Positions 2,439 to 62,954 of a stretch of 64,000 nucleotides of DNA are shown here, piece after piece. Source of the DNA: Candidatus Zhuqueibacterota bacterium (GTDB lineage Bacteria > Zhuqueibacterota > Zhuqueibacteria > Thermofontimicrobiales > Thermofontimicrobiaceae); assembly GCA_049322915.1 (NCBI GenBank), contig JBMOPW010000021.1, forward strand, positions 1 through 64,000, written 5' to 3'. A program made the translations under genes and the position numbers. Positions within the stretch are counted from its first letter, which is position 1, and the number at the start of each line of letters is the position of its first letter. Below the pieces are notes generated by a model. That model was not told the DNA's origin and searched no databases. It saw only the letters and a list, made by a program, of their open reading frames with translations.

Positions 2439-5345
2439 TTGAATCGCATAAAATACATCAAGCTTATCCTTTTTTCTTGCCTCTTCATTCACCCCATTTC
2501 ACTCTTTGCACAGCAAACAGGTAAAATCACCGGGCGGATTTTTGATACCGCAACAAAGGAGCCGTTAATTGGAGTCAATGTCCTCGTTGAGGGCACGTAC
2601 ATCGGCGCTGCCACAGATACCAAAGGCTGGTATGTCATTCTGAATGTGCCACCGGGGACGTACGCCCTGAACTGCATGTACATGGGCTACCAGAAGGTGA
2701 GTGTCGAGAATGTGGTGGTAAAAATTGATCGCACCACGCGAATCGATGTTCCGATGACAGCCACAGTGATGGAACTGGGCGAGGAGGTGGTCATCACGGC
2801 AGAGCGACCAATTGTGGAAATTGATAAAACATCCTCCTCCATTCATTACGAGGCAAAGGAGGTGCAAAATCTGCCGGTTGAAAATTTACGGAATGTCCTG
2901 CAGTTGTCGCCGGGCATCAGTAAAAATGCAGACGGTACGCTGAGCATCCGGGGCGGGGGTGCCTATGAAATTAACTATACGATAAATGGCATCAAGAGCA
3001 TGAACACCAACACCGGCGTTCCCGCGTACGGGACCGGTTCCAAATCTGAGAATAGCTGGAAATATGATATCAATCCATTGGCAGTGTCGCAAATGGAGGT
3101 GATCACTGGCGGTTTTAATGCAGAGTACGGCAACGCGCAATCCGGGGTGGTGAAAGTTGTCACCAAAGAGGGGGGGGCGAGATTCAATGGGGCTTTTCAG
3201 GTTGAATATCGACCGCCGGGAAAATATCACTGGGGCGAATATCTGTTTTCCAGGGATCAGTATGAATGGAAGAAATGGGGTGATTTTCAGAACTGGCTCA
3301 ATGAGCCCCAGTTCCGCGATTCCAGCGGGGCCGTGAGTAAGGCGGAGGCGCTGAGAAATTATCAGCTCTGGATGAAAAATCACACACCGTCGGAGGATAA
3401 TATTCTGGGCGTCTATGATTATCGGAAATCAGCATATACGCGGTACTTGTTCAGCTTCGGGGGCCCGCTGGGACGGAACTCCGATAAGATGAGTTTTTTC
3501 ATCACGGGCGAATTGAAGAATGCCCCAACGCGTCTCCCAACCAGGGAGCAAGTCCAGAAACTGGGGAATTATTCGCTGGTGATTTCTTATAAGCCCACTG
3601 CATCGCATCAATTCAAATTCACTAGCCTGTACCAGCATTTTTATTCCGGTATGGGTTCGGGCTCTGAAGATGTGCGCTGGGCTGGTTTGTGGGGGAGCTA
3701 TGGTGCAAAACGCAAGTACACCTTGATCTATGACTCGCCGCGTGAAGAGACCGTATTCGCTCAGAGTTTGAATTATAAGCGGATCTTTTCCTCCAAATCG
3801 TTTCTCGACGCCACAGTGACCCATCAAAATGAAATTCTCTACGCATTGCAAACACCAACGCCAGCCATTGACAAGGATGTTCAGCTTCATCCCGATCCGG
3901 AAGATCGCCTTCTGGAAGACCGCGGGCCATGGAACGAGAAATATCGTGAATATTACACCTGGTCCAGTCTGTACAATCAGGCGTCGGTGACTCATTTCTA
4001 TGAGGGAAAACTCAATTTCACCCATCAGCTCACGACCACCAATTTACTCAAAGCCGGCATCGAAGCGTCGTTGATGGAGCAGGATTATAATGCATCGTCT
4101 TCTTTGTGCGTGGCAGCGTTTATCTGGCGAACCGGTTTTGCAACCAATTATAAAGCAAATACCTGGTATCTGGCCGGGTATATTCAGGACAAGCTCGAAT
4201 TTGCCGGCATGGTGGCCAATCTCGGGCTTCGAACAGAAACCTACAATTTTGGAGTGGATGCGCCCGCAGATAAATATAATGTATTTTATCCGGCGCTGGG
4301 CAGTCCCGGCATTGGCCTACCGGAATGGGAGCCGTCCCGGACGTTCACCACGGTTTCGCCGCGGCTTGGCATTTCATTCCCCATCGGACAGACCACCGCA
4401 TTCCGCGTGCAGTACGGACACTTTCGTTCCATGCCAACAATCAACCAGGCATTGGATAACCAGACCTACAACGGCTGGGGGAGTTACGGGAATCCCAATT
4501 TGAAGCCCAATCTGAGCGTCAATTACGAAGTGGGCGTCCAGCAAAACTTATGGGACACGCATCAATTGGATATCGTCACCTATTATAATGACCTGAAAGA
4601 TCAGATTTCCCTTGTTTACATCAAAAGTTCAACCGGCAGTCAGGTGAAGCCAGATGATTTGAAGGGCACCTACATCAGTTACGAGAATAACGGCTATGGA
4701 AATTCGCGGGGAATTGAAATCAGTTTTTCCAGTCGCAGTCAGGGGTACTGGAATTATCGGCTGGCTTACACGCTAAGTCAGACCAACTATGGCTATTATG
4801 GCGTGTACCTGAATCGGCAGGATTTGACCGAGGAATTGGAGCAAAAATATAGCTATTCTGCCAGCGATTACCTGGCCCCGGAGGACCGAACCCATCGGTT
4901 CAACGGCGCGCTGACGTACAGCCTGCCGGCCAGCGGCGGAATTAACATTCTTGGTTTCCATCCGCTTGAAAATTCATCGACCAGTTTAATCCTCACGGTG
5001 CGCAGCGGACTTGCCTACTTCTGGTCGCCGGCCTATCAATATGATTATAAAATTGAATCGAACCGCCGGTATCCCATGGAGTCCCAGACCGATCTTCGAT
5101 TCGAGAAGACGCAGAAGATTGGTTCGCTCACGTTCAAAGCCAGCATCCGAATTTTGAATTTGCTCAATAATGCTCATCTCACTCCGATCACGGTTCAGGA
5201 AGAATTGGACCGCTGGGTATTGCGCAGCGCCACTTTCGCCGATGCGGATGATGATCCCACTCGCGATGTGAGAATTTATAACTATTTCCAGGTCTATCGG
5301 AATGTCCCCCGGCAGGTGTTCTTTTCATTCGGGGTGAATTTTTAA
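2439..5345 (+). CDS. TonB-dependent receptor
   Basis: Signal peptide; carboxypeptidase-regulatory-like N-domain (TGKITGRIFD...EPLIGVNV...GAATD); plug motif (EVITGGFNAEYGNAQSGVV); C-terminal Phe (FSFGVNF). TTG start with AAGGGAG RBS. Confidence 0.92.
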   Translation: MNRIKYIKLILFSCLFIHPISLFAQQTGKITGRIFDTATKEPLIGVNVLVEGTYIGAATDTKGWYVILNVPPGTYALNCMYMGYQKVSVENVVVKIDRTTRIDVPMTATVMELGEEVVITAERPIVEIDKTSSSIHYEAKEVQNLPVENLRNVLQLSPGISKNADGTLSIRGGGAYEINYTINGIKSMNTNTGVPAYGTGSKSENSWKYDINPLAVSQMEVITGGFNAEYGNAQSGVVKVVTKEGGARFNGAFQVEYRPPGKYHWGEYLFSRDQYEWKKWGDFQNWLNEPQFRDSSGAVSKAEALRNYQLWMKNHTPSEDNILGVYDYRKSAYTRYLFSFGGPLGRNSDKMSFFITGELKNAPTRLPTREQVQKLGNYSLVISYKPTASHQFKFTSLYQHFYSGMGSGSEDVRWAGLWGSYGAKRKYTLIYDSPREETVFAQSLNYKRIFSSKSFLDATVTHQNEILYALQTPTPAIDKDVQLHPDPEDRLLEDRGPWNEKYREYYTWSSLYNQASVTHFYEGKLNFTHQLTTTNLLKAGIEASLMEQDYNASSSLCVAAFIWRTGFATNYKANTWYLAGYIQDKLEFAGMVANLGLRTETYNFGVDAPADKYNVFYPALGSPGIGLPEWEPSRTFTTVSPRLGISFPIGQTTAFRVQYGHFRSMPTINQALDNQTYNGWGSYGNPNLKPNLSVNYEVGVQQNLWDTHQLDIVTYYNDLKDQISLVYIKSSTGSQVKPDDLKGTYISYENNGYGNSRGIEISFSSRSQGYWNYRLAYTLSQTNYGYYGVYLNRQDLTEELEQKYSYSASDYLAPEDRTHRFNGALTYSLPASGGINILGFHPLENSSTSLILTVRSGLAYFWSPAYQYDYKIESNRRYPMESQTDLRFEKTQKIGSLTFKASIRILNLLNNAHLTPITVQEELDRWVLRSATFADADDDPTRDVRIYNYFQVYRNVPRQVFFSFGVNF

Positions 5346-5394
5346 TGGTCACGAAACACTGCGCGTTCCGTGCAGCTCACTTTTTTTAAAGCCA

Positions 5395-7443
5395 ATGAAA
5401 ATGAAAACCATTCATACCCTTCTTTATGCTGGCCTTGTTTCCCTGACATGGCTGATTGTCTTCACGTCCGGGTTTGAAACAGGCCTGGCGCAGGAGAAAC
5501 TTTACACCATCAATCTGACACGCGGCAAGCTGTGGCATTCATTTTACATGTCGCAGGAATGTGAACCCATGGCGGACTGGGGACGCAAGACCTATGGCCT
5601 GGATTGGCCCGGCTACAGCACTGAAGAGGTGAAGCAAAACATCGGCGGGAGCAATAGCTATCTTGTGGCCGGCGGTTTTTTCATCACGGCGCTGAACGAC
5701 ACGGGCAATGTCTGGGGCTGGGATAATTTCGCAACGCACGGCACCGATGTCGGGTACGAGGGCGACCAGTTTCGCTACCTCGTTTCGAAGGATGAAAACA
5801 ATGCGCCCATTCATCGGCGGCGATGGAACAACGGGGAGAACTACTGGTTGCAACTCAATCCCCGCGAGGCCGAAGATGTGATCGAATCCCAGTGGGAAAT
5901 GAACGGCGCGTGGTATCAGCCCTGGGATAATCAAAATATGCCAGTCGCGGTGAAGCGCACCGTGCGGCAATGGTCTGGCTCCCAGGCCGATGAAAATTAT
6001 GTCATCATCGACTACACGGTTCGCAATACCCAGCGCCGGGATGCTCTGAACGGAGTGTATCTCCTTTTCAATTATGCGCTGTCGCCCAACCATCGCGGCT
6101 GGAATCTGACCTTTTCGAACTTCCCTGATGGCGCCAGAAATACCCATAGCAGCTACGATGCCGACGACCGCCTGCTGCTCGCGTTTGCCGGGGATTTCAT
6201 CGCAACGCCCGGGCTGGACGAGTCCTTCGATTTTTTCAATCATGTCGTGTATGACCCGATACGCGATGAAAATACTCTTTCGCCTGAGTTCATCGCGCCC
6301 GGCTTTATGGGCATTAAATTTCTCTATGTCTCGCCCGACTCCAATGGCGTTGAAAATTCGATCCGCTTTGCCTGGTCAGCGGCGGCCCCGACCAATGACC
6401 ACTCCGGCCCATTCCTCGGAATTGCCGGGCTGGACAGCAAATATGAAGCCATGGCCAATCCGACCCTGCTGTCCGAAGCATTCGACGATGCCAGTGATCC
6501 CCGCATGGGGCAAAATCGGCTCTATGCCAACTTTTCCGTGGGGCCGTTCAACATTCCCCACCGCGATTCCATTAAAATTGTCGTTGCTGAATTCGTCGGA
6601 GGCATGAATTACGAGGACGCCATCAAAGAGAACACGACCCGGGACGATGTGCTCGCGGCCGGGGACTCGGCCGTGGCCTATTTGAACGAGCGCGTCGCTT
6701 TCAATTACAATCACGGGTACACGGTTCCCATGCCGCCGCCGGCGCCGGCTTTTTCAGTTTACCCCAGCAGCGCCGAGGGCCAGGTCGCCAATGTCGTTGC
6801 CTTTGACAATGCGGTCGAGTCTGTGGCGGATCCGCATCAGGGCGCTCCGGATATTGTCGGGTATCGCATCTATCGCTCCGGCAGCTATCCGTTTGGGCCG
6901 TGGCTGCGCGTGGCCGAAATCCCGGTCGGCGATCCGCAGTTCTTCAACGCCGATTCTCAGAAATACATGTTCATCGACACCGCGGTGCCCCTGGGCTATG
7001 GTTTTTATTACGCCGTCACCAGCTACGACAGCGGGCATGATGCCTGGACTGTCGATCCCGCGGTTTCAGTGCCGTCGCTGGAATCGTCCATTTTCGCCAA
7101 TCGCACGCACACAGCATTTTACACCACGCTGCAACCGACAAAATCGGAACTGGACCGCGTGACAGTTGTTCCGAATCCGTTCTACCGAAGCTCCGGCTTC
7201 CAGTTGGCGGGCGACACCAAATTGATCCAGTTTGTCAATCTTTCCGAACAATGCACGATACGAATTTACACCGTCCGCGGAGATCTGGTGAAAACCGTGC
7301 ATCACTCCGATGCGACGTCCGGGGTAGCGACCTGGAATCAAATCAGCGATTACGGTCAGTATGTCAAAAGCGGCATGTATTTTTTCCACGTCTCCAATTC
7401 CCGCGGCGTGGTTAAAACTGGCAAGTTTGCAATCATAAATTGA
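5395..7443 (+). CDS. Secreted FN3-like protein with FlgD/T9SS-like C-terminal sorting domain (TBDR partner)
   Basis: Signal peptide; PMPPPAP linker; FN3-like GYRIYRS...YYAVTSYD; C-terminus VTVVPNPF...IRIYTVRGDLVK...WNQ...SGMYFFHV...GKFAIIN. Confidence 0.75.
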   Translation: MKMKTIHTLLYAGLVSLTWLIVFTSGFETGLAQEKLYTINLTRGKLWHSFYMSQECEPMADWGRKTYGLDWPGYSTEEVKQNIGGSNSYLVAGGFFITALNDTGNVWGWDNFATHGTDVGYEGDQFRYLVSKDENNAPIHRRRWNNGENYWLQLNPREAEDVIESQWEMNGAWYQPWDNQNMPVAVKRTVRQWSGSQADENYVIIDYTVRNTQRRDALNGVYLLFNYALSPNHRGWNLTFSNFPDGARNTHSSYDADDRLLLAFAGDFIATPGLDESFDFFNHVVYDPIRDENTLSPEFIAPGFMGIKFLYVSPDSNGVENSIRFAWSAAAPTNDHSGPFLGIAGLDSKYEAMANPTLLSEAFDDASDPRMGQNRLYANFSVGPFNIPHRDSIKIVVAEFVGGMNYEDAIKENTTRDDVLAAGDSAVAYLNERVAFNYNHGYTVPMPPPAPAFSVYPSSAEGQVANVVAFDNAVESVADPHQGAPDIVGYRIYRSGSYPFGPWLRVAEIPVGDPQFFNADSQKYMFIDTAVPLGYGFYYAVTSYDSGHDAWTVDPAVSVPSLESSIFANRTHTAFYTTLQPTKSELDRVTVVPNPFYRSSGFQLAGDTKLIQFVNLSEQCTIRIYTVRGDLVKTVHHSDATSGVATWNQISDYGQYVKSGMYFFHVSNSRGVVKTGKFAIIN

Positions 7444-7450
7444 GAAAAAA

Positions 7451-8422
7451 ATGAAGACTCACAGTTTGAATGCGAAACCAATGTTGTTGCTATTCACTCT
7501 GCTGGCCATGTTCTCTGCCGGGCGCGGACAGGATTTTCAAAAAACAGGCACGACCGGATTCGTATTTCTGGAATTGCCGGTCGTGGCCCGTTCCGCGGCA
7601 ATGGGGGAGACCGGCATCACGCTGCCCGATGCCGGCGCTGCCGGCCTGTTCATCAATCCGGCGCTCATCCCGTTGAGCACGAATCGGTTGGGGCTGAATG
7701 TGTCCTTTGCCGACTGGTACGTGGAAACGACCCATCAGGCAGTGGGTCTGATTTACAAAATTCCCGCCATTGGCACGGTTGGATTTCAGGCCACCTATTT
7801 TGATTTCGGCGAGATGAATAAAACCGTGAATCCTTCCGCTTCGGAGACAGGGTCGTACATCGATCTGGGCACATTCTCGGCCGGCGCATATTTCGTGGGA
7901 GTCTCCTTCGGCCGTTCTCTCACGGACAAATTCTCTTTCGGCGCTTCGCTGAAATACATCCGCGAAACGATAGACCAGTATCATGCGGATAATGGGACCA
8001 TCGATATGGGATTTGTGTACCTGACTGGTTTTCGAAGCCTTCGTATCGGAGCGTTCCTGCAGAATTTCGGCCTGGAAGCGAAGTACGCCACTGAGAAATT
8101 CAAGATGCCGCAGCAATTGAAAATGGGATTGTCCGGCGAGGTCTGGGGTAACCTCGCTGACGACAATCACCTGACTGTGCTCGTCGAGGCTGCTCACCCC
8201 AATGACGCCGATGAGCGAATTTTGTTGGGCGCGGAATCGGTCCTGATGAAAGCCCTGGTGCTGCGCGCCGGATACAAATTTGGCTTTGATGAGGAAAATC
8301 TATGCCTTGGCGCCGGGCTGCGTCTGCGCCTGGCCGGTCGGCATGCCGGCATTGATTTTTCTTACATGAATCATAAACATCTGGATACAACGCTTCGGTA
8401 CACGTTCACGATGGAGTTGTAA
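7451..8422 (+). CDS. PorV/PorQ-family outer-membrane beta-barrel
   Basis: Signal peptide followed by the PorV-like N-terminal motif GTTGFVFLELPVVARSAAMGE...FINPA; amphipathic beta-strands. Confidence 0.85.
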   Translation: MKTHSLNAKPMLLLFTLLAMFSAGRGQDFQKTGTTGFVFLELPVVARSAAMGETGITLPDAGAAGLFINPALIPLSTNRLGLNVSFADWYVETTHQAVGLIYKIPAIGTVGFQATYFDFGEMNKTVNPSASETGSYIDLGTFSAGAYFVGVSFGRSLTDKFSFGASLKYIRETIDQYHADNGTIDMGFVYLTGFRSLRIGAFLQNFGLEAKYATEKFKMPQQLKMGLSGEVWGNLADDNHLTVLVEAAHPNDADERILLGAESVLMKALVLRAGYKFGFDEENLCLGAGLRLRLAGRHAGIDFSYMNHKHLDTTLRYTFTMEL

Positions 8423-8425
8423 CTC

Positions 8426-9247
8426 ATGAGATCAGATTCCGTTAAACTGTTTCCCAATGCCCTGCTGCTTGCGGCGGTATTGCTATTGCACCCGCCAGCT
8501 CCGGCTCAGGAAAATTCGATCAAGCTGAAAATCCTGAGCGATTTTCAGGCGCAAAACAGCGTCTACAGGGTGGAAGAAGCCCGCGGCTTTGGACTCGGTT
8601 CCCAAATGAATTTTCCGCTGACGCAACATCTCGATTTTTGCCTGCACGTGAATTACGACTATCTGTGGCTCTCGCAGAACGATGTGCTGGACGAGTGGAA
8701 TTGGGACTATTGGGAACAGACCTACATCGATTTTCTGCCTGGCACTGAGCCTGAAATTGTCAATCAAACCCTCCGCTATACCAGCACTGACAGCATTTAC
8801 TCCGCCACGTTCGAGCCGGAACAGCGATTGAAAGAATTGCGGCTGTTCGCCGGCGTTGAATATCAGATACCCATCACGGAAAAACTGACGTGTTACGCCG
8901 GGTTGAGCGCCGGGGTGAGCCTGTTTTTCAGGGAACTGCACATGAAAGAGCACTGGATCAAGCGATTCAAGGTCGATACCCTTTCCACTGAAAAATTTGA
9001 TTACGATTATCAATTCGACCTGCTCCACTTTGCTCCGACGAAAAAAGGGACGATCCTTTTTGGCGCGCCGTCCCTGGGAGTGAGGTATTTCCTCAATGAG
9101 ACCGTGGATATGGACGTGTCCGTTCACTCGCTGTTTTATTACCATGAAAACCAAATCGCCGGCATCATCGTCTCCAGCGGCGGAGAAGAATGGTATCCGC
9201 TGAAATCCAAAACCCAGGTGAAAATCGGGTTGACATTTAAATATTGA
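8426..9247 (+). CDS. Outer-membrane beta-barrel protein, unknown function
   Basis: Signal peptide; alternating beta-strand pattern; aromatic terminus (KIGLTFKY); starts 3 bp after the upstream gene. Confidence 0.65.
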   Translation: MRSDSVKLFPNALLLAAVLLLHPPAPAQENSIKLKILSDFQAQNSVYRVEEARGFGLGSQMNFPLTQHLDFCLHVNYDYLWLSQNDVLDEWNWDYWEQTYIDFLPGTEPEIVNQTLRYTSTDSIYSATFEPEQRLKELRLFAGVEYQIPITEKLTCYAGLSAGVSLFFRELHMKEHWIKRFKVDTLSTEKFDYDYQFDLLHFAPTKKGTILFGAPSLGVRYFLNETVDMDVSVHSLFYYHENQIAGIIVSSGGEEWYPLKSKTQVKIGLTFKY

Positions 9248-9259
9248 TACGGGTACACC

Positions 9260-9901
9260 ATGCAGAAATACTTGATTATCTTGTTATTTGTATTGGCACT
9301 TTGCCCCATGAGCTCCGGCCAGGAAATCGGGCAATGGGGCGTTTCCATTCAGGGCGATTATTCTCAACCCATTGCCGGATTGTCGGATTGGTTTGCAGCC
9401 GCGCCGGGATTGGGCATTTCCCTGGGACAGCAGCGCAATGAGCACTGGTTCATCGAAGCCAGAATCGAATGGGCCCGGTTCGACGACGAAAACCTCACCG
9501 GCTATGTCGCCGACCACGTTGAGCTTTCGCTGGAGCACTTCGGATTGGTCTTCAACGGCCGTTATCAATTGGGACAGCTCGCCCTGCTGAAGCCTTACCT
9601 GAGTCTCGCCGGCGGTCTGTTTAGGTGGCGCGGGATTCGCGGCGCGGTTCAGGCGGATTCCACGGTCTCGCCGTATGTGCCGTTCATTGAAGAAAAGAAG
9701 CTGGAGGAGCAAAACTGGGGATTCTGCAGCGGGATAGGCGCCGAAGTGACGCTGCTGCCATCGCTCTCCCTGGATGTGCATGCCTATTATCGGTTTATCA
9801 TAGGCGATCTCTGGCCGACGCTTCAGCCGAATATCGAACTGGAGGGGGTGTCCGGTTTCCAGACCGTGAATGTGGCGCTGGCGCTGCGCTACTATTTTTA
9901 A
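9260..9901 (+). CDS. Small (OmpA/OMP_b-brl-like) outer-membrane beta-barrel
   Basis: Signal peptide; KPYLSLAGG and GIGAEV strands; terminal ALRYYF. Confidence 0.7.
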   Translation: MQKYLIILLFVLALCPMSSGQEIGQWGVSIQGDYSQPIAGLSDWFAAAPGLGISLGQQRNEHWFIEARIEWARFDDENLTGYVADHVELSLEHFGLVFNGRYQLGQLALLKPYLSLAGGLFRWRGIRGAVQADSTVSPYVPFIEEKKLEEQNWGFCSGIGAEVTLLPSLSLDVHAYYRFIIGDLWPTLQPNIELEGVSGFQTVNVALALRYYF

Positions 9902-10123
9902 AATCGCCGCCCTTGTTTCGTAGGTCGGGCAATGATTGCTGAGTTTCCGGAAAAGCCGTTTTCATGCGTGCGCGACCGGCGCTGTTCTCAGTCCGCGCGG
10001 TCAATCATCCGGCGCGAACCGCCGGTTCAATTTGATTGTCCCCCGTGGTGAATCAAATTTCGCCAATAGTAATATGAATGACGAGGGAAAATTTTGGAGT
10101 CTTTATTATTATTGGAGATACGC

Positions 10124-10261: not shown

Positions 10262-12229
10262 ATGAAAAAAATGTTGCTGCTGTTATTTTTATGCGGAGCG
10301 TTGACCAGCTCCGGTTTTGGTCAGTATTTTTTAAACTGGGCCAGTTACGATTACATCAAAGCCGGCACGGATATCACCCGAAGCGTGGCGTACAATCCCA
10401 TCACAGACCACGTGCTTGTGGCCACCCGCTATTTCGGCGTCCCGGATATCATCATTCTGGACGCAGCCACAGGAGATTCCCTGGGCAGATTGGATACAGA
10501 CAATATGTGGAATGGAACCTATCCCATCAACATGGTCTCGGTCGCGGACGACGGGACGATTTATGCCACGAATTTGTCCGCGCCGCAATACACACCCGGT
10601 TCCACGCTGATGATCTACCGCTTTGCCAATGAAACGGCGCCAATGGAAACCGTGGCGGATGACGCACTGGATGGCGCGCGATACGGCGATTCTTTTGCCG
10701 CTGTGGGAACCGGCGCCGGGAAATATCTGTACGTCTCCGGCATGGGCAACTCCAATATCGCTGTGTTCCGCGACGAAGGCGGGGCCTCGCTGATTTTTGA
10801 TTCCTATCTGCCATTGCCCGTTCCAAGCGCGGCGCGGCATGGTATTTCGCCAGTTTCTCCCGGCGGTAAAGTGTGGATCAATGGCGCCGATACCGGGAAT
10901 CCAGCGCCGCAATTGCTGAATTCCGACGGAACGGTCATCACGGTTGTGCCCGATTCGTTGGCCTCTGCCGGCGGTACGTCCTGCATCCGGCATTTGGAGT
11001 TGGGGAATTACAAACTGATTGTCGTGTCCAATGCCTGGGGCGTCACAGTACGTTGTGTGCGCTATTTCGAGGACGAATTGGGCACTGTCACCTTCGATTA
11101 CTTCGGCGAAGATTCGGATTCCACCATGTTGTTTTACAATGGCGCGACCTACAATACCAACTTCAACGCCACAGCATCTCTGGATTACGATTCCAAACGT
11201 CATGCGATCATTTCGCTGTTCGGCTACAACAGCGTCGCGTCCGTGAGCATGGATTCGCTGCTGAAAGCCAGTACGCCGCGCTCGGATTCAATGACCATCA
11301 GCATCGACGGCAGCAATGACTTTTTCCCGACAGATCATGTCGGCGCCAGCAACGGCCGGGACATGTACCTCACCTGGTCCGAGGGCAAGGTCTTTGTAGG
11401 GGTGACCGGTTTCACCCTCATCGATCCGACTGGTAAGAACAGGATGTATGCGGTTTTTGATCTGGATCCCGATGGCACGAATGGATCTGCGACATCGCCG
11501 GAAGACGCTGGCGGCATCACCGCTTTCCCGTTTCTGGCGGATGTCGTGTACATGATCGAGTCCTGGAATGAGCCGGGATGGATGATTGGCACTATTTATA
11601 AATGGAATGGTTCGCAATGGACGAAAACCGAGTTCGATGGCAATATGGCCGCTCAGGGCGCGCTTGCAGCAGCCGCTGAGGGTGGTAGAAAATTGGCCGA
11701 ATTGGCCGCTATCAAAAATGCACCCGGCATTGGCGCCGACGTCCGCAACCTGGGGCTGTTAGTGTACGTCGCGGAAGCCAGCCCGACCGGACAGGTGCTT
11801 GCCGCCTTTCCATCCCGGAACGCCACTGTGACAGGCGCTAATTTCACCCATTATTTTTACGCGGATAGTCTCGGCAGCGGCATGTTCCCGGCAGATACCA
11901 GTGATGTGAAAATCCGAAGCGGGTCCACCGGCGTGGACGATGGCAACGATGGTGGGGTGATCGCTGATTATGCGCTGCATCAAAACTACCCCAATCCGTT
12001 CAATCCATCCACGACCATTCGATTCGGGATGTCAAAACCAGGCTTGGCAGCGATTGAGATTTATGACATCACAGGAAAACGCGTCCGGAGCCTGTTGCAC
12101 AAACGGCTGAACGCCGGCCTGCATGATGTGAATTTCTCCGGCGAGGGCCTGAGCAGCGGCGTCTATTTTTATCGGCTTAAAATTGCGGATGCCATTGTTG
12201 AAACCCGGAAGATGCTGTTTTTGAAATAA
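10262..12229 (+). CDS. Secreted DUF4623-like protein with T9SS type A sorting domain
   Basis: Signal peptide; repeat unit RSVAYNP..DHVLVATR...ILDAATGDSLGRLD...VSVADDG.IYATNL; CTD LHQNYPNPFNPSTTIRF...SSGVYFYRL...RKMLFLK. Confidence 0.8.
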   Translation: MKKMLLLLFLCGALTSSGFGQYFLNWASYDYIKAGTDITRSVAYNPITDHVLVATRYFGVPDIIILDAATGDSLGRLDTDNMWNGTYPINMVSVADDGTIYATNLSAPQYTPGSTLMIYRFANETAPMETVADDALDGARYGDSFAAVGTGAGKYLYVSGMGNSNIAVFRDEGGASLIFDSYLPLPVPSAARHGISPVSPGGKVWINGADTGNPAPQLLNSDGTVITVVPDSLASAGGTSCIRHLELGNYKLIVVSNAWGVTVRCVRYFEDELGTVTFDYFGEDSDSTMLFYNGATYNTNFNATASLDYDSKRHAIISLFGYNSVASVSMDSLLKASTPRSDSMTISIDGSNDFFPTDHVGASNGRDMYLTWSEGKVFVGVTGFTLIDPTGKNRMYAVFDLDPDGTNGSATSPEDAGGITAFPFLADVVYMIESWNEPGWMIGTIYKWNGSQWTKTEFDGNMAAQGALAAAAEGGRKLAELAAIKNAPGIGADVRNLGLLVYVAEASPTGQVLAAFPSRNATVTGANFTHYFYADSLGSGMFPADTSDVKIRSGSTGVDDGNDGGVIADYALHQNYPNPFNPSTTIRFGMSKPGLAAIEIYDITGKRVRSLLHKRLNAGLHDVNFSGEGLSSGVYFYRLKIADAIVETRKMLFLK

Positions 12230-12491: not shown

Positions 12492-15400
12492 ATGAAACAA
12501 TTTTTAACGGTAGTTTTATTCGTTTTTGTAGCAGCTAGTATGGCATTTGGCGGAGTTGAACTGACGACCGTGTGGGAAAAGTCCGCGTCCCATGGGACTC
12601 TGCCATCGTGGTTCGATACCACGGATAAGACGCGTGGATTGGATTACGGCAACGTGGGCGGAAACGACCGGCTCTACGTCGTGAGCCGCCACAACGGCAA
12701 CTTCATCTATATTCTCAACCCTGCGACTGGCGACTCGTTGGGAAGGCTCGATAACACCGGCATTACCGGCGGAACCTATCAAGTCAGCGATGTTGCCGTG
12801 TCTCAGGATGGAGTCATTTTTGTCTGCAATCTGGCTGTCGGCGGGACATTCATCGTGTACAAATGGACGGATGAAACAGCCGCTCCGGTGCAGGTCATCA
12901 CGTATGACGCGACCGGAAAAAGGCTGGGCGATAAGATGTCCATCTCCGGCGCTGCCTCGGACAATTCGCTGGTGATCTGGGCTGCTTCAGCCAATTCCAA
13001 CGATGTGGTGAAATTTACAACGGCCGATAACGGCGCCACATTCACGCCGGAAACGATCAATGTCGGCAGGACTGGCGGCAGCGCTTCGGTTGACCTTGTG
13101 ACCGATGGGTCCGGCGATTTTTATTACAATGCCACCAGTCAGCACGTGTTCAAATATGCGTCGACAGGCGCGCTACTCGGCGAAGTCCCCGGCGAGGTCG
13201 TGGCGACTGGCTCCAATGCCATCCGCTACATCACGACTACCGGGAATCTGGAATATTTCGCCACGTTCCAATTCGGCACCGGCAACCAGAACGCCCGAAT
13301 CGTCCGCGTTCCCAATGGCGATCTGGCGAGCGCGTCGAGCTACAGTCTCACGTCAGCGCTCGGCAGCAACAGCAACGCCAATGGCGCCGGCGATGTGGCC
13401 ATCAAAGACAATGGTGATGGGACCTTCAATGTTTTTGTGCTGGCCACCAACAATGGTTTGGGCGTCTATCAGATAAAATTCCCTGTGCCGGCCATTGATC
13501 CGATTAATATGACGCTGGATTGGGAATCTGATATTAATGATTATGCTTTTTTCAAAAACGATAACAATACGCGCGGCATTGGATTCAATCCCATGACCGA
13601 TCATCTGCTGGTGGCTTCACGAACCGGCGGGACGTTCATTTACGCTATTGATGCGGCGACCGGCGCTGTGGTCGATACGCTGGATATGACCGGCGTCAGC
13701 GGCGGCACCCTGCATCTCATGAAAGTGTCCGTGGACTCCAAAGGCGTCATCTATGCCTGCAATCTGGCTCTGGCCAATGGCGAGTTCAAAATGTATCGGT
13801 GGGCTGATGAGAAAGCTGTTCCCACCCAGGCGTTTGCCGGGATTGTCACTGGCCGAACCGGTGATTCATTCAGCCTCAGCGGCGATAGCCTCAACACCAT
13901 CATCTACGCCAGCGGCACCGGCAATGCTCAGGTTGAAGTATTCACCACCGCTGATGGGCTGATGTTCACAAAGGGGACGGCGATCCCGGTCGCCAGCGGC
14001 GCTGCCCGCGGAGGTATTTCCGCCATCACGACAGATGTCAATTCGGACGTCTGGATCAATGGCACCGGCACACAGGTGCAGCGCGTTGCAGCCAATGGCG
14101 CCGTGGTGACAGCCATCGATGGAGCGATCATCGCAGCGTCGTGGATGAATGTGGCTTTTATCGAGTCGGCCACCGGCGCGAAGCTGCTGCTGGTCAATGC
14201 CAATGACGTGGCCGGGGACAGGCGAAAATTACAGGTGTGGGATATCACCTCCTCGGAAACGGCGCCGGTTTTATGGGCTGCCGGCGAAACGTCCTATCTG
14301 GAATTTACCAATGGCAATGCATGCGGCGAAATCATTGCCCGTGACAATGGCGACGGCACATTTAAAGTGTATCAAATGGCCAGCAACAATGCCATTGCCA
14401 CGTGGACCCTGCAGATCCCTGAAGTCATTTCTGTCATGACAATCGCCGAAGCCAAAGTGGATGCCAATGGCGATTTTGTACCGGACTTGCTGGATCAGGA
14501 AGTGACGATCAAGGGTATCATCACCACTCCCAATTACAGCTCCACTTCACAATATTACATGCAGGATGAGACCGCCGGCATTCAGGTCTACGGAATTGCG
14601 CTGACGCCCGCCCTGAATATTGGCGATGAAATTATCGTCGCCGGTAAAATTGATCAGTACCGCGGCGCCACGGAAATTGTGGAATTTACCGCCGAAACAG
14701 TGACTCTCCTCAGCACCGGTAATGTCGTTGAACCGCTTGTTACCACAATCGGCGAGCTCTCGGAGGCTGTTGAAGGTGTCCTTGTCCGGATCAACGGCGT
14801 GAAAATGATCGATCCCACGCAATGGCCGGCTGAGACGAAAAATGGCAATGTCTACATCACAGATGGTGTGGACACGACCTATGTTTTCATTGATAAAGAA
14901 ACCAACCTGGACGGATGGACGCCGCCGGTGGGCAAGTTTGATCTCATTGCAGTGTGCGAGCAATTCACCTACAGCGAACCGGCCAACGACGGCTATTCCC
15001 TGCGAGGCACATTGCAGGAACATTTCATCCCATTGCCCATCGTCGAGCTTCCGCTGTTCGACGGCGCTACTGACGGCACATTGGATCTGGAATGGGTGCT
15101 CAATACCTACACCGGCCCTGGAAAAATTAATGTCGCTGACTCCACGGCAAGCGCCTGGGGCAGCCATGTGATCACCTACTGGGATTCCACCGGCTCCGGC
15201 CTGGTTCATGTCAAAGATGCGTTATTTGCCGATTACACCATCTCCGCTGATTTTTACCTTGTCGCGGAGCCTGCTTCAGCGACTCTGTATTCGGGTCTCG
15301 GCATACGAATGTCCCATGATGAATTGAAGTATTTCCGGTTCATCTACCGCAATGCTTCTTCGGACAATGGCCAATTGTGGCTGCAAGGTTCGCTGGGATC

Positions 15401-17483
15401 CGGCTCATATTATATTGACAAAAAATGGAAACCTGAAGTGGACTTTGCGCCCATCACGACCGGCTGGCATAATCTGAAAGTCACGGTTGTGGACAATCTC
15501 TACTGGACATTTTTAGATGGCGTTCTCCTGCCAGGCTGTCCGTTCGAGGATACCGATCGTATCCTGGCTGAGGGCTATCCCGGCATTTACAAGTATGCGT
15601 CCAAAGAAGGAACCATTTATTTCGATAATTTCACAGTCACAGAACCGGTGATTCCGCCTGTTCCTGAACCGGAACCACTCTATCCGTTGTGGGCGAAAAC
15701 CCAGGCCGCCGGTAACTATCCGGCTTATATGTCCACAGCAAATTACACGCGCGGCATGGCCTACGGCAACGTGAATGGCGCGGATCGCGTCTACGTGGTG
15801 ACGCGAACGGGTGTGCACCGAATTGTCATCCACGACGCCATGACCGGCGATAGCCTCGGTGTGATCGCCAAACCGACCCAGGCTGAAGGTGTGGGATTGT
15901 TCCATATCAACGCGGTGGATGTCTCGGACGACGGCATGATTTTCGTCTCCAACATGACGCTCAATTGCGACGCGACCAATCCGTTCCGCGTGTATAGCTG
16001 GAACAGTGAGTCTGCAGAAGCGCAGACAGCTATTTCGTACGACGCCGGCATTGGAAGAATGGGCGATATGTTCAGTGTCTACGGCAGCGCCAGCGATAAC
16101 TCGCTGACCATTTACGCCGCAGTCGCCAGCAGCAATAAAATCGTCAGGTTCACCACAGCGGATAACGGCGTCAGTTTCACGCCGCAGGTGATTGAACTGG
16201 CGTCCGGCGGTTTCGGCTCGCTGCCCAATGTGGCCCAGACCAAAGAGGGGACGCTGTACGTCAAATCCTATGGCAATCCATTGTTCCAACTGGATGCGGC
16301 GACCGGCGCCATGGATACCGTTTCCAGTGAAGTTGTCGGGACCGGCGCTTCCAAAATCAAATCGTTCAATGCCGGGGATAACGAATACCTGATCGTCTAT
16401 TACCCGGATCTGCCCGGCGCTGGCGATGCAGAAAAGATGGCCATTGTGGACGTGACTGATGGCCCTCAAAAGGCGCTGGTCGTTTATGAATCGGCTTCCA
16501 TTGGCGCCTTTGCCAACGGCAACGGCACTGGCTCGGTGGATGTGAAATCGATCTCCGCTGACCAGCATCTGTTCTTCATCATGGGCACCAATAATGGCGT
16601 GGCCGCATTTTCCAATGACAGCGAATTCGTCATTGCCAATCTGGATACGTTATTCTACGGCAACACCCCGGTGCTTCATCCCAATCCGTACGGTGACGGT
16701 TATATTGTCGGCACCAATAGCTATGGCGATCTCGGCAAATACCAGCGGTTCGATTTCATCGCCGGGGACGAACTGACCGGATTCAAGATGTACTTTGCAG
16801 CAAAATCCATCACCGGCCAAGCAGATACCCTGGATCTGGTGGTCAAGCTCGTGGCTGAAAATGGCGGTCCCGGCGCTACAATTGCAGCGCTGAAAACCAC
16901 CACGGACGTGCTGGATACCACCGGTATGGGCAATATTTTCTTCCTGAAAAATCCCATTTCGCTGGATGGCCCGGTATTCATCGGGTTCGAGTGGTCGTCG
17001 AAAGTCGATGATGCGTTTGCTCTGTTCGCTGATGCGAACGGCGAAGGCGACAATGCCGGCCGCTCCTGGGAAAAATTCGCCGATGGAGCGTACAATGATT
17101 TCGGCGGTATTCTGAATCCCAGTTTCGCATGGAATGTCGACGTCGATTTGTGGATCGCCGCCTATTACATCGAAGGCGTTGTTTCGTCTGTGAATAAACC
17201 CGCTGCGGTCGTCATTCCGGAAGGATTTGAATTGGGCCAGAATTATCCCAACCCATTCAATCCATCGACCTCGATCAGTCTGGCTATCCCGGTAAATTGC
17301 GAAGTGGATATCGCTGTCTACAATCTACTGGGTCAGAAAGTAGCGGATGTCTTCCAGGGAAGACTCAACGCTGGCTATCATAAATTCCAGTTCATGGCAA
17401 AGAATTTGACCAGTGGCATTTATTTCTACAAAGTGAAAGCTGGCAGTTTTGAAACTGTGAAGAAAATGACATTGATTAAGTAA
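12492..17483 (+). CDS. Large modular secreted protein: 3 DUF4623-like repeats, OB-fold-like and lectin-like modules, T9SS type A CTD
   Basis: Three ~300 aa units beginning RGLDYG / RGIGFNP / RGMAYG. Central TIAEAKVD...VTIKGIIT...YMQDETAGIQVY OB-fold-like region. PVIPPVPEPEP linker. CTD LGQNYPNPFNPST...SGIYFYKV...KKMTLIK. GGAGG RBS. Confidence 0.8.
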   Translation: MKQFLTVVLFVFVAASMAFGGVELTTVWEKSASHGTLPSWFDTTDKTRGLDYGNVGGNDRLYVVSRHNGNFIYILNPATGDSLGRLDNTGITGGTYQVSDVAVSQDGVIFVCNLAVGGTFIVYKWTDETAAPVQVITYDATGKRLGDKMSISGAASDNSLVIWAASANSNDVVKFTTADNGATFTPETINVGRTGGSASVDLVTDGSGDFYYNATSQHVFKYASTGALLGEVPGEVVATGSNAIRYITTTGNLEYFATFQFGTGNQNARIVRVPNGDLASASSYSLTSALGSNSNANGAGDVAIKDNGDGTFNVFVLATNNGLGVYQIKFPVPAIDPINMTLDWESDINDYAFFKNDNNTRGIGFNPMTDHLLVASRTGGTFIYAIDAATGAVVDTLDMTGVSGGTLHLMKVSVDSKGVIYACNLALANGEFKMYRWADEKAVPTQAFAGIVTGRTGDSFSLSGDSLNTIIYASGTGNAQVEVFTTADGLMFTKGTAIPVASGAARGGISAITTDVNSDVWINGTGTQVQRVAANGAVVTAIDGAIIAASWMNVAFIESATGAKLLLVNANDVAGDRRKLQVWDITSSETAPVLWAAGETSYLEFTNGNACGEIIARDNGDGTFKVYQMASNNAIATWTLQIPEVISVMTIAEAKVDANGDFVPDLLDQEVTIKGIITTPNYSSTSQYYMQDETAGIQVYGIALTPALNIGDEIIVAGKIDQYRGATEIVEFTAETVTLLSTGNVVEPLVTTIGELSEAVEGVLVRINGVKMIDPTQWPAETKNGNVYITDGVDTTYVFIDKETNLDGWTPPVGKFDLIAVCEQFTYSEPANDGYSLRGTLQEHFIPLPIVELPLFDGATDGTLDLEWVLNTYTGPGKINVADSTASAWGSHVITYWDSTGSGLVHVKDALFADYTISADFYLVAEPASATLYSGLGIRMSHDELKYFRFIYRNASSDNGQLWLQGSLGSGSYYIDKKWKPEVDFAPITTGWHNLKVTVVDNLYWTFLDGVLLPGCPFEDTDRILAEGYPGIYKYASKEGTIYFDNFTVTEPVIPPVPEPEPLYPLWAKTQAAGNYPAYMSTANYTRGMAYGNVNGADRVYVVTRTGVHRIVIHDAMTGDSLGVIAKPTQAEGVGLFHINAVDVSDDGMIFVSNMTLNCDATNPFRVYSWNSESAEAQTAISYDAGIGRMGDMFSVYGSASDNSLTIYAAVASSNKIVRFTTADNGVSFTPQVIELASGGFGSLPNVAQTKEGTLYVKSYGNPLFQLDAATGAMDTVSSEVVGTGASKIKSFNAGDNEYLIVYYPDLPGAGDAEKMAIVDVTDGPQKALVVYESASIGAFANGNGTGSVDVKSISADQHLFFIMGTNNGVAAFSNDSEFVIANLDTLFYGNTPVLHPNPYGDGYIVGTNSYGDLGKYQRFDFIAGDELTGFKMYFAAKSITGQADTLDLVVKLVAENGGPGATIAALKTTTDVLDTTGMGNIFFLKNPISLDGPVFIGFEWSSKVDDAFALFADANGEGDNAGRSWEKFADGAYNDFGGILNPSFAWNVDVDLWIAAYYIEGVVSSVNKPAAVVIPEGFELGQNYPNPFNPSTSISLAIPVNCEVDIAVYNLLGQKVADVFQGRLNAGYHKFQFMAKNLTSGIYFYKVKAGSFETVKKMTLIK

Positions 17484-17924: not shown

Positions 17925-19775
17925 ATGAATAAATTATTATTATATATCTGTCTCTTTGGTCTTTATGCAGCGCACATCCATGCCCAGCCAACGGAATTCC
18001 GCGGGGTCTGGATTGCCTGGGCTGGCGACAATGTTCCCACCAAAACCCGCATTGCGGAAATGATGGACGACCTGGCAGCGCATAACATGAACACGGTCTA
18101 CGTGGATGTGTGGCGCTTCGGCTATCCCTATTTTCGCAGCCAGGTCTATCATCAATTGACCGGATTGTACACCGACCCGGCCATCGAAGCCGGCCGCGAT
18201 GTGCTGGCGGAGATGATCGCAGAGGGGCATCGCGCCGGGCTCCATGTCGAAGCGTGGTTCGAATACGGATTCGTCGCCTGTCAGGGCACTATCGAGCATC
18301 TCTATCTGGCGCACCCGGAGTGGTTTGCCAAAAAGCGGGACGGCTCTGTGTTGTTCAACGGCGATTACCGCTACAAGTGGCTCAGCCATTGCAATCCGCA
18401 CGCGCAGCAATTCCTCATCGACCTGGCTCAGGAGGTCGCCCTGAATTACGATGTGGATGGCATCGAAATGGATCGGATCCGATACCCGGAATTGGATTGC
18501 GGCTATGATTCGGTCACTGTGGCGCTGTACAAGCAGGCCCATGCCGGGGCGCCGCCGCCGCAAAATACCAGTCACTCCGGCTGGAAGGCCTGGCGCGCGG
18601 AAAAGCTCACAGAATTCTCCGCCATATTTTATGACTCCATCAAAGCTGTTCGGCCCGATCTGCCGGTGAGCAACGCGCCCATTGTTTATCCCTATGGTTA
18701 TGATAATTTTTGCCAGGACTGGCGGCCGTGGATTAACAGCAATTATCTCGATGTCGTTTCGCCGCAGGTGTATCGCGCCACCAACGACTCGTACACCTAC
18801 GATTTGAATATTCAGCTTTCATACGTGAACGACCGATCTAAATTTTACCCGGGACTCACGTCCATCACGGACAACGACCTGGTGCCGACGAGCGAAATTC
18901 TTGCCATGATTAAAACTACGCGCAATCGCGGTTTGATCGGCCATGTGATCTGGTTTTACGACGCGCTTGCCGATGATCTGCCGGCGTTGAAAGCCGCTGT
19001 GTACCAGCAAAAGGCCCACGTCCCGGGCATGCCGGAAGACTGGCGCCGTCCGGCCATCATCATCAATGAGAGCGATGCGCCGGTCGCCCGATCAGCGGGC
19101 TGGACTGAATATACCGCCCTGTCCGGATTCGCAGGCGGGTGTCTCTATGCCAGCGATCCGGGCGACGTCTGGATCGATTATTCGGCCGACGTCAGCGAAT
19201 CCGGCTGGTACGAGTTGTACAATTACAATATCTTCCACTGGAATGCCGCGAAGGCCGCGCCGTTTCTGGTGTATCACGCAGCCGGGATCGATACCGTGCA
19301 GGTCGATTTGAGCGTCTCAGGCCAGTCGCGCTGGTTCAAACTCGGCGATTATTTTTTCGATGCCGGCAATTCGAAAAAAATAGTGCGACTCGCGCCCGGC
19401 GATCAGAGCGGCCGAATTGTGTTCGCGGACGCGCTGATGCTGCTGAACAGCAATCGTCTCAGCGGGACAAGCGCGGTGACTGAGCCGGAAAAAAAAACTG
19501 AAAATACGCCGATAGATATTGTATTGAGTCAGAATTATCCCAATCCGTTCAATGGCGCGACGAGGATACAATTTGAAATTGCCCGGCGGAGCAGGGTGAC
19601 GCTGGAATTATTCGATGTGCTGGGCAATCGGGTTCGGCTGTGGCGCCAGGGCGAACTGAATCCCGGCATGCATTCGATTCATGTCGAACCTGGCGATTTG
19701 CCCGGGGGAATTTATTTCTATCGATTGAAAGCCGGGCAGACGGCGCAAACACGAAAGATGGTGCTGGTCAAATAA
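17925..19775 (+). CDS. Glycoside hydrolase-like 10 (GHL10/YddW-type) protein with golvesin-like domain and T9SS CTD
   Basis: EFRGVWI, LHVEAWFEYG, YDVDGIEMDRIRYP, QDWRPW, SPQVY; golvesin-like SGWYELY...RWFKLGDYFFDAG; CTD SQNYPNPFN...RKMVLVK. Confidence 0.85.
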   Translation: MNKLLLYICLFGLYAAHIHAQPTEFRGVWIAWAGDNVPTKTRIAEMMDDLAAHNMNTVYVDVWRFGYPYFRSQVYHQLTGLYTDPAIEAGRDVLAEMIAEGHRAGLHVEAWFEYGFVACQGTIEHLYLAHPEWFAKKRDGSVLFNGDYRYKWLSHCNPHAQQFLIDLAQEVALNYDVDGIEMDRIRYPELDCGYDSVTVALYKQAHAGAPPPQNTSHSGWKAWRAEKLTEFSAIFYDSIKAVRPDLPVSNAPIVYPYGYDNFCQDWRPWINSNYLDVVSPQVYRATNDSYTYDLNIQLSYVNDRSKFYPGLTSITDNDLVPTSEILAMIKTTRNRGLIGHVIWFYDALADDLPALKAAVYQQKAHVPGMPEDWRRPAIIINESDAPVARSAGWTEYTALSGFAGGCLYASDPGDVWIDYSADVSESGWYELYNYNIFHWNAAKAAPFLVYHAAGIDTVQVDLSVSGQSRWFKLGDYFFDAGNSKKIVRLAPGDQSGRIVFADALMLLNSNRLSGTSAVTEPEKKTENTPIDIVLSQNYPNPFNGATRIQFEIARRSRVTLELFDVLGNRVRLWRQGELNPGMHSIHVEPGDLPGGIYFYRLKAGQTAQTRKMVLVK

Positions 19776-62845: not shown

Positions 62846-62954
62846 GGTGTGAAGGCCTTTCTTTTCTGAAGAATAAAGATGAACTGAACCGGAAGATTTT
62901 TTCGAAGCGTAACGTTTAAAATTTTCAGGCAAGAAACATCAAACAGCCGTGGTT

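Follow-up and report, generated by a model that had tools for sequence, protein, structure and literature searches.

How are TonB-dependent transporters supplied with glycans in those bacteria of the Fibrobacteres–Chlorobi–Bacteroidetes (FCB) group that stand outside Bacteroidota? Glycan import in this group is understood almost wholly from the SusC-SusD systems of Bacteroidota, SusD itself being, to our knowledge, essentially confined to that phylum, and the manner in which TonB transporters are fed in the sister phyla KSB1, Calditrichota, Marinimicrobia, Kryptonia and Ignavibacteria, all of them abundant in sediments and oceans, is an open question. Bearing on it is a cassette of five genes at positions 2439–9901 of a stretch of DNA from a Candidatus Zhuqueibacterota bacterium (contig JBMOPW010000021.1, positions 1 to 64,000; hereafter the window, meaning the whole 64,000 nucleotides). 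In this cassette a TonB-dependent receptor is followed by a secreted partner protein bearing a type IX secretion system (T9SS) C-terminal domain (CTD), by an outer-membrane barrel of the PorV/PorQ family and by two small barrels. With slightly more confidence than doubt, we regard the cassette as a conserved SusD-free outer-membrane nutrient-uptake system of FCB-group phyla outside Bacteroidota and, as such, as a concrete and testable answer to how transporters are fed in these phyla.

A conserved gene cassette

The five open reading frames (ORFs) all lie on the + strand. The gene of the TonB-dependent receptor (2439–5345, 968 amino acids, aa) is followed by those of the partner (5395–7443, 682 aa, not a lipoprotein), of the PorV/PorQ-family outer-membrane barrel (7451–8422, 323 aa), which is the proposed cognate anchor of the partner CTD, and of two small outer-membrane β-barrels (8426–9247, 273 aa, and 9260–9901, 213 aa), both accessory members of the cassette. 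The intergenic gaps in the ORF call are 49, 7, 3 and 12 nucleotides (nt), exactly as in the original prediction, which had placed the genes behind the receptor at spacings of 3–49 bp; 360 nt separate the 213-aa barrel gene from the next gene. The same prediction had seen neither a SusD nor a lipoprotein lid here, and this holds, since none of the 33 window ORFs chosen and scanned (9 plus 24) matches the SusD family, and a canonical lipobox is nearly absent from each of the five protein families, occurring in 1–2 of their 58–63 members.

For the wider comparison, species-representative genomes were scanned with alignment A1. From the 180 confirmed relatives so obtained the 80 best loci were retained, their ORFs called and the window proteins searched in them; L020 and L073 are loci from complete genomes. 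These loci carry the titles KSB1, Calditrichota, Marinimicrobia/Fidelibacterota, Kryptonia and Ignavibacteria. The receptor gene stands directly upstream of the partner gene in every one of the 71 loci whose upstream sequence extends to at least 1 kb, and the PorV-like gene directly downstream of it in 79 of 80; of the loci that could be evaluated, 60 of 69 have the 273-aa barrel after the PorV-like gene and 55 of 65 have the 213-aa barrel as the next in line (56 of 65 if locus L018 is included, in which, at 13966–15795, the second small barrel reads through into the next ORF). As the gene order recurs in 80 loci, chance is excluded as its origin. The cassette as first described is, in other words, real and its gene order conserved. 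In locus L048, from position 7816 onward, the partner gene is followed by reversed genes, with those of a caspase-like protein and a DUF5686 protein.

Both small barrels are missing from the Kryptonia-type loci (L032–L039 and L072), and profile hidden Markov models made from the barrel families found no diverged copies of them there at E 1e-3. The core of the cassette is, therefore, receptor, partner and PorV-like barrel, to which the small barrels are accessories. In one of these minimal loci, L035, the PorV-like gene is followed by housekeeping genes for a methyltransferase, a phosphoribosyltransferase and a carbamoyltransferase, and a protein with a type A CTD is encoded just upstream of the receptor.

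The most constant companion of the cassette is a glycosidase-like enzyme of the GHL10 family, homologues of which (at least 150 bits) are present in 47 of the 53 loci of at least 15 kb. In the loci designated type 2 (L040, L041, L044, L052 and L054), a long GHL10 enzyme lies directly upstream of the receptor gene, instead of after the barrels; that of L040 (4385–6931), 848 aa long, combines two stretches of Golvesin_C with a Big_5 domain and a CTD of type A. The link between enzyme and transporter outlasts rearrangement of the locus.

Some metagenome-assembled genomes (MAGs) contain two loci (L009 with L044, L031 with L058, and L011 with L048), and in the first two pairs each locus is a complete triad. 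The triads of L031 and L058, which belong to one MAG, are only 34, 34 and 39% identical in partner, barrel and receptor, respectively; over the same three proteins the identity is 49, 47 and 58% between L031 and the window and 65, 51 and 67% between L058 and L070, so that each triad stands nearer to its counterpart in another organism than to its companion. The presence in two MAGs of two complete, deeply diverged triads each shows this barrel to be something other than a single PorV kept for housekeeping. Indeed, when taken with a barrel tree which recovers the types defined from the partner (100/100 support, see below), it upholds the earlier description of the barrel as a dedicated paralogue.

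The three core genes have also diverged together. Over 62 loci and the window, pairwise distances correlate with r = 0.91 between partner and barrel, 0.97 between partner and receptor, and 0.91 between receptor and barrel. In the maximum-likelihood tree of the barrel, the 24 rows of type 1 make up a single branch (100/100 support), and the main subclades recur in the maximum-likelihood tree of the partner, which was made as a quick version. As the type 1 label itself derives from partner distances, only the recovery of type 1 in the barrel tree is independent. Clustering of partner and barrel by the unweighted pair group method with arithmetic mean gives no agreement when two clusters are cut (adjusted Rand index −0.02) and an index of 0.8 when three are cut. 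The agreement of distances and trees shows that the three genes travel together, whether by inheritance, duplication or transfer; that the cassette forms one functional unit is, in our view, close to certain.

The titles of loci L001, L010, L030, L041 and L043 (Cytophagia, Caldisericaceae, Acidobacteriota) clash with their placement in the tree among KSB1/Calditrichota or Ignavibacteria-type rows. As taxonomic labels these titles may have been applied loosely, or else transfer of the cassette may account for the clash.

The partner protein

The partner begins with a signal peptide devoid of Cys, after which come a β-supersandwich domain (residues ~ 36–448, nt 5500–6738; the N-domain), an FN3 domain (453–560, nt 6751–7074) and the CTD (590–682, nt 7162–7440). 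It had been described as a non-lipoprotein of 682 aa, of which the first part stands and the second does not, public copies beginning two codons later at a length of 680 aa. No Pfam family is found in it, the sole listing being a sub-threshold CHU_C. Nor is it a member of SusD/RagB, there being no match to that family, no Cys in the signal peptide, a lipobox in only 1 of 63 members and a β-rich model. A profile of the partner gives only marginal matches to chains in the PDB (Fn3, E 0.073; PorU CTD, E 0.09). There are about 100 cluster representatives of the protein, none of which has a precomputed Pfam domain; those that are named come from KSB1, Calditrichota, Marinimicrobia and Ignavibacteria, and some members have been given the name 'T9SS type A sorting domain-containing protein' by NCBI.

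The AlphaFold2 model of the whole partner (predicted local distance difference test, pLDDT, 82; predicted template modelling score, pTM, 0.82) consists of a signal helix, a β-rich domain (~ 90–440), FN3 (453–560) and a β-sandwich CTD (590–680). When compared with the PDB by Foldseek, PorZ (5m11) comes first (E 1.3e-6, template modelling score, TM, 0.13), followed by FN3 tandems and GH94 enzymes, with PorU (6za2) at rank 46. For the N-domain modelled alone (pLDDT 90, pTM 0.91), the matches, with TMq of 0.34–0.42, are sandwich domains at the N-termini of GH94 phosphorylases, GH116, GH149 and cyclic glucan synthase, domains which are the non-catalytic parts of those enzymes. Since nothing in the partner corresponds to the catalytic domains of the matched enzymes, a role in binding is more likely for the partner, on the strength of these models, than one in catalysis.

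A search of the Atlas with the N-domain returned unnamed clusters only, none of them with Pfam families, and its profile found 134 representatives at E ≤ 1e-3 among 1.84 billion, 13 of these at E ≤ 1e-30. In 26 distant relatives that were scanned, the best match at the C-terminus is PorZ/PorU-like in 11 and a classic type A CTD in 10 (hand count). Judged by these C-termini, the fold of the N-domain is the mark of a wider, unnamed superfamily of T9SS cargo. Certain of the distant relatives (P0237–P0327 set) carry, as fusions, glycosidase-like parts of the F510_1955 type or NosD-like parts.

What kind of CTD does the partner then carry? Its scores with the NCBIfam models are 35.5 bits for the PorZ CTD, 24.8 bits for the PorU CTD and 21.7 bits for TIGR04183, the last to be set against a cut-off of 23; the second type A model, PF18962 (cut-off 27), is not listed. 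The PorZ match covers only positions 659–757 of the 757 in model NF052228, in other words the CTD, and at 35.5 bits against a cut-off of 260 the partner is no PorZ as a whole. It does not carry a type B CTD either, the score with CHU_C (PF13585) being 17.0 bits (E 0.0063) against a cut-off of 27. Over 22 members of the family, the CTD matches the PorZ and PorU models in 19 and TIGR04183 in 15 (E ≤ 0.01). For the three neighbouring classic CTDs, TIGR04183 is ranked first and a PorZ match is found in none.

With these three local type A CTDs the partner CTD shares 23–26% identity, and it differs from them in two insertions, one of 9 residues behind PNPF and one of 3 residues around an invariant Trp; the PNPF, I.IY, G.Y.Y and final K positions align. 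The difference noticed in the original prediction between this CTD and those downstream is, therefore, genuine, but it does not extend to a separate class: as all type A motif positions (PNPF, G.Y.Y and the C-terminal K) align, the partner CTD is best regarded as a divergent type A.

Moreover, no part of the partner is as strongly conserved as its CTD, the mean pairwise identity of which is 59.6%, as compared with 43.3% in the N-domain (n = 63). For CTD and body of the neighbouring cargo the corresponding values are 44.6% and 49.5% (655-aa protein, n = 28) and 33.4% and 51.4% (GHL10 enzyme, n = 26). A CTD which outconserves its own body, unlike those of the neighbouring cargo, is more in keeping with a module for permanent binding than with a signal to be discarded. 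There is precedent for CTD retention in PorZ and PorU, the two T9SS proteins of which the CTDs are kept and bound to PorQ and PorV, respectively (PMC10202324).

The PorV/PorQ-family barrel and its predicted complex with the CTD

The barrel belongs to the PorV/PorQ family (NF033709), scoring 171.4 bits against a cut-off of 90 over model positions 1–325 of 326, and all 27 relatives match the same model. It falls below both equivalog cut-offs, with 118.5 bits against 220 for PorQ (NF033711) and 79.3 bits against 250 for PorV (NF033710), although these equivalog models were probably built mainly on Bacteroidota sequences, such that distance alone could depress the scores of the barrel. All 27 barrel members match both PorQ and PorV, with best E-values of 2.8e-40 and 2e-25, respectively. 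The barrel, described in the original prediction as PorV-like, has scores that lie nearer to PorQ than to PorV (118.5 as against 79.3 bits). The sole sequence match of the barrel in the PDB is PorV of Flavobacterium johnsoniae (6h3i_F, E 1e-5), and the match to Pfam PorV is sub-threshold (22.6 bits, cut-off 27). No PorP/SprF-type family appears among the Pfam and NCBIfam listings of the three barrels of the cassette at E ≤ 0.01.

For prediction of a complex, barrel residues 27–323 (alignment A2) were combined with partner residues 450–682 (alignment A1). All three runs give a score of 0.93 and the highest of three controls gives 0.01, with at least 92% of contacts in agreement between runs and a partner pLDDT of at least 80. 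The mark set for the tool is attained by 116 of 157 solved complexes and by 2 of 215 mismatched pairs, counts which apply only roughly here, where own alignments were used. The complex modelling thereby favours the proposed association of partner and barrel, in that binding of CTD to barrel is predicted. On the CTD side the predicted interface contains the VVPNPF, RGDLV and GKFAI motifs (invariant as VVPNPF, RGDLV and GK), the insertion specific to the family and the invariant K677; on the barrel side it consists of the N-terminal segment 30–42 together with residues 90–93, 117–136, 172–179, 211–218, 252–253, 279–282 and 308–312. As far as such modelling allows, the partner is probably tethered by the barrel.

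It had been suggested that partner and barrel constitute a third kind of CTD–barrel pairing, beside those of type A CTDs with PorV and of type B CTDs with PorP/SprF. This suggestion has to be given up, the CTD being most like those of PorZ and PorU (19 of 22 members), the barrel most like PorQ (27 of 27) and the pairing of a retained CTD with such a barrel already described. With a CTD akin to PorZ/PorU and a barrel akin to PorQ, and with pairs of this sort on record (PMC10202324), partner and barrel look rather like a known retained pairing that has been put to new use.

The receptor and the small barrels

The receptor comprises a signal peptide, a carboxypeptidase-regulatory-like N-terminal domain (residues 30–118), a plug (131–236) and a large barrel, with Pfam matches to CarbopepD_reg_2 (1.7e-17), Plug (4.2e-11) and TonB_dep_Rec_b-barrel (2.1e-17). 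It is a TonB-dependent receptor by both defining domains (Plug, 43.8 bits, cut-off 23.9; TonB_dep_Rec_b-barrel, 64.6 bits, cut-off 27). It is not one of the SusC/RagA subfamily (TIGR04056), for which it scores 72.3 bits against a cut-off of 368 and covers only model positions 2–217 of 981. Searched against PDB chains, its sequence has no match at E 1e-3.

As to the small barrels, the 213-aa protein reaches 29.4 bits with Pfam OMP_b-brl (cut-off 28.7). The 273-aa protein has no Pfam or NCBIfam family; its Atlas structure resembles the OmpA_membrane/OMP_b-brl porin family (TM 0.61).

A proposed mechanism

How might these components work together? We infer three steps, namely retention of the CTD, binding of glycans by the partner and physical cooperation of the partner with the receptor. 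In this scheme the partner would pass the inner membrane via Sec and the outer membrane via the T9SS, using its CTD; the CTD would remain uncut and stay on its cognate barrel, as does the CTD of PorZ on PorQ and that of PorU on PorV, and the non-catalytic β-supersandwich and FN3 module would thereby be held at the cell surface beside the receptor. There it would capture glycan fragments from co-encoded, T9SS-secreted enzymes (GHL10 and others) and hand them to the receptor, a capture role that in Bacteroidota is taken by SusD or by surface glycan-binding lipoproteins. The two small barrels would be accessory parts of the apparatus, dispensed with in Kryptonia-type loci.

Not all of this can be held with equal firmness. 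That the partner captures substrate for the receptor, or forms a lid on it, has an even chance at best. A bolder version, in which receptor, partner and PorQ-like barrel (with or without the small barrels) form one stable machine with a T9SS-delivered, glycan-binding lid hinged on the barrel over the transporter, is tentative and, on present evidence, doubtful. Were it true, FCB phyla lacking SusD would possess a T9SS-dependent equivalent of the SusCD utilisome, and ~ 700-aa supersandwich proteins with PorZ-like CTDs would mark many more transporters, with other specificities.

Several observations tell against a tethered capture system. One locus, L048, has no barrel beside the partner, and no T9SS core gene was seen in the window. 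The type A score of the window partner (21.7 bits) lies slightly below the curated cut-off of 23. The fold matches of the N-domain are moderate (TMq ~ 0.4, root mean square deviation 8–13 Å), with no ligand-binding site identified in it. As to the predicted complex, conserved residues are not enriched at the barrel interface (12 of 55, as against 50 of 242 others), and their enrichment on the CTD side is modest (17 of 42, as against 11 of 51; both hand counts). The score of 0.93 pertains to the cognate CTD only and is no measure of specificity; it may also echo solved structures, since complexes of type A CTDs with PorV exist (PMC10994853, PDB 8gl6 and related). Finally, the distance correlations and matching trees do not prove co-evolution of an interface, because any operon inherited whole would give them. 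Of the co-evolution of cognate pairs envisaged in the original prediction, then, joint divergence (r 0.91–0.97, matching trees) is borne out and co-evolution proper is not proven.

Alternative explanations

The alternative that survives best, rather unlikely as we judge it to be, keeps the tether and drops the contact with the transporter: the partner would be held on the barrel but act independently, as an unrecognised enzyme, an adhesin or a glycan-binding protein that makes no contact with the receptor, and the genes would be linked through a shared substrate pathway. The evidence for tethering is equally compatible with this explanation, and none of it bears on contact with the receptor. 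Moreover, several acidic residues of the N-domain are invariant or nearly so (for example D70, E160, D199, D255 and E298), and among the members of the N-domain superfamily are long T9SS cargo proteins of many domains, parts of which are glycosidase-like (P0248, P0255). In the other direction, only non-catalytic domains of the enzymes concerned are matched by the fold, the receptor gene is directly upstream in all 71 loci in which this can be seen, and the correlation of partner with receptor, at 0.97, is the highest of the three pairs.

Improbable, but not negligibly so, is that the barrel serves as a cassette-specific shuttle for all of the secreted proteins encoded nearby (the GHL10 enzyme and the 655-aa and 1663-aa proteins), the partner CTD being then an ordinary, cleaved signal. 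Classic type A cargo is indeed always near, even in the minimal Kryptonia cassette, where it lies just upstream of the receptor, and the complex prediction covered the cognate CTD only. Against such a shuttle, the partner CTD is far more conserved than both the neighbouring CTDs and its own body, and it resembles the two CTDs known to be retained; further, the type A CTDs of F. johnsoniae are all reported (PMC12618676) to use the general PorV.

Considerably less probable still is the notion that partner and barrel are this lineage's equivalent of PorZ and PorQ, a housekeeping attachment part of the T9SS that stands beside a receptor by chance. It is prompted by PorZ 5m11 being the top fold match (E 1.3e-6), by a CTD most like that of PorZ and by a barrel most like PorQ. 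The PorZ match, however, is of low TM (0.13) and is due to the FN3 domain and the CTD, the body of PorZ being different; there are two diverged cassettes per MAG, each with its own receptor; and the constant companions of the cassette are the receptor and GHL10, not T9SS genes.

Scarcely credible is a fourth alternative, in which the barrel would be a FadL-like channel for substrates that has no part in secretion, and the domain at the C-terminus of the partner would be merely structural and Ig-like. The Pfam PorV match of the barrel is indeed under the cut-off (22.6 bits, against 27), and bacteria that have no T9SS also contain proteins annotated under the PorV/PorQ family name. The barrel nevertheless scores 171 bits against 90 with NF033709, after which PorQ and PorV rank next in 27 of 27 members, and it is predicted to bind a CTD that matches T9SS CTD models only, in an organism that uses type A CTDs.

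Relation to known systems

A SusD-free uptake cassette with a barrel-tethered partner, which is the reading we prefer, has its closest parallels in the following described systems. The first is SusC-SusD of Bacteroidota, in which, as here, a TonB transporter with a carboxypeptidase-regulatory-like domain is followed by the gene of a surface-exposed partner, within a locus for glycan degradation. SusD is α-helical, whereas the partner described here is β-rich, gives no SusD match and is no lipoprotein; its proposed route is by way of the T9SS and the barrel, and the barrel of the receptor lies outside the SusC family.

The second parallel is with PorZ-PorQ and PorU-PorV of Porphyromonas gingivalis, in which a T9SS-exported protein keeps its CTD and is held on a PorV/PorQ-family barrel (PMC10202324). 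In contrast to these, the body of the partner is a supersandwich with FN3, the two genes are adjacent and fixed beside a receptor and glycan enzymes, more than one cassette per genome is possible, the phyla are outside Bacteroidota, and the equivalog cut-offs for PorZ, PorQ and PorV are not reached.

The third is with type B CTD cargo and PorP/SprF-like barrels of F. johnsoniae and P. gingivalis, where again the cargo gene adjoins that of its own barrel, which decides the location of the cargo (PMC12618676, PMC9143113). In the present case the CTD is type A-like, the barrel is of the PorV/PorQ family, and the cargo is tied to a transporter, not to adhesins.

There is also a likeness to the general PorV shuttle of the SprA translocon (PDB 6h3i, 8gl6 and related), of which the barrel is a sequence relative (E 1e-5). 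In the solved complexes type A CTDs are bound to the loops of PorV, which is touched by a conserved Lys near the C-terminus of the CTD (PMC10994853), and the invariant K677 lies correspondingly in the predicted interface. The barrel here differs from general PorV in its length of 323 aa (402 aa in the PorV chain), in being co-encoded with a single cargo and in that the CTD is the most conserved part of that cargo. Given the report that in F. johnsoniae the type A CTDs all rely on the general PorV (PMC12618676), it is worthy of note that a type A-like CTD here has a PorV/PorQ paralogue of its own.

What is known, then, is the retention of CTDs on cognate barrels and the pairing of transporters with SusD or other lipoprotein partners; the partner of this cassette belongs to neither kind. 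In a search of the literature, with subscription-only papers and supplements outside it, no description was found of a cassette of receptor, CTD protein and PorV/PorQ barrel. In the cited part of the genome paper of Caldithrix abyssi, TonB is mentioned only in connection with cobalamin and thiamine receptors (PMC5317091). If our reading is correct, the role of PorQ/PorV-like barrels would widen from secretion housekeeping to the permanent anchoring of nutrient-capture proteins. The order receptor, CTD protein, PorV/PorQ barrel offers a genomic marker by which to find polysaccharide-utilisation loci outside Bacteroidota. Locus L076 is titled Ignavibacterium album, such that a cultured species may carry the cassette.

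The surrounding locus

Downstream of the cassette, three secreted proteins with type A CTDs, all scoring above the cut-off, are encoded on the + strand; their CTDs lie at 11972–12229, 17229–17483 and 19521–19775, respectively. The first (10262–12229, 655 aa) carries a classic example (Por_Secre_tail 35.5 bits, TIGR04183 38.2 bits), and its homologues come after the barrels in type 1 loci. The second (12492–17483, 1663 aa) is a multidomain protein with DUF5018-like repeats, DUF5689, a lectin fold like that of 3-keto-disaccharide hydrolases and a type A CTD. The two have a similar N-terminal module in common, the 1663-aa protein contains three DUF5018-like stretches, and homologues are found near the cassette in many loci. 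The third is the GHL10-family glycosidase-like enzyme (17925–19775; GHL10 4.4e-55), with Golvesin_C and a type A CTD above the cut-off, which is likely to be the depolymerase that feeds the receptor. We take DigH/YddW of Escherichia coli, an enzyme that cuts peptide-free glycan strands of peptidoglycan, to be another member of GHL10. The cited part of PMC12288456 does not confirm this assignment.

Beyond the GHL10 enzyme, positions 19777–59086 contain a ROK regulator, DUF4434, a GlcNAc 2-epimerase, a NanA-like lyase, a sialate O-acetylesterase and DUF4838, and in addition two GH2 enzymes, GH95, GH31, a GH29 fucosidase, a GH88-like protein, an M28 peptidase, amidohydrolases, GH20 and a BNR protein. 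This region is a locus for the degradation of complex glycans, rich in amino-sugar, sialate and fucose functions, which suggests that the substrates are sialylated and fucosylated complex glycans.

Possible regulatory signals were also found around the cassette. A promoter-like site on the + strand (2370–2398; TTGACA, a 17-nt spacer and TAACAT) lies 41 nt upstream of the receptor start, and is weak, having emerged from a consensus scan only with 10 of 12 matches; upstream of it, at 2055–2079, lies a hairpin of 10 pairs with a T run (pattern match). A terminator-like hairpin at 5359–5375, of 7 pairs followed by a T run, is found inside the 49-nt gap between receptor and partner, and a further hairpin is at 10009–10025, both likewise by pattern match only. 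The first of these two may tune the ratio of the receptor to the products encoded downstream.

Within the glycan locus, on the − strand at 47304–52433, there is an island of low G+C content (0.28–0.33, as compared with ~ 0.53 elsewhere) with one ORF of 1709 aa. Its product has AAA_11/AAA_12 helicase and MTES_1575/DUF559 nuclease domains and matches PDC-S37 (5.8e-60), a candidate defence protein of PADLOC, and also MkoA and Hhe; it is probably a horizontally acquired defence gene that has been inserted in the glycan locus. At the edge of the window, again on the − strand (61277–62932), lies the gene of a 551-aa peptidoglycan hydrolase with four SH3_3 repeats and an N-acetylmuramidase domain.

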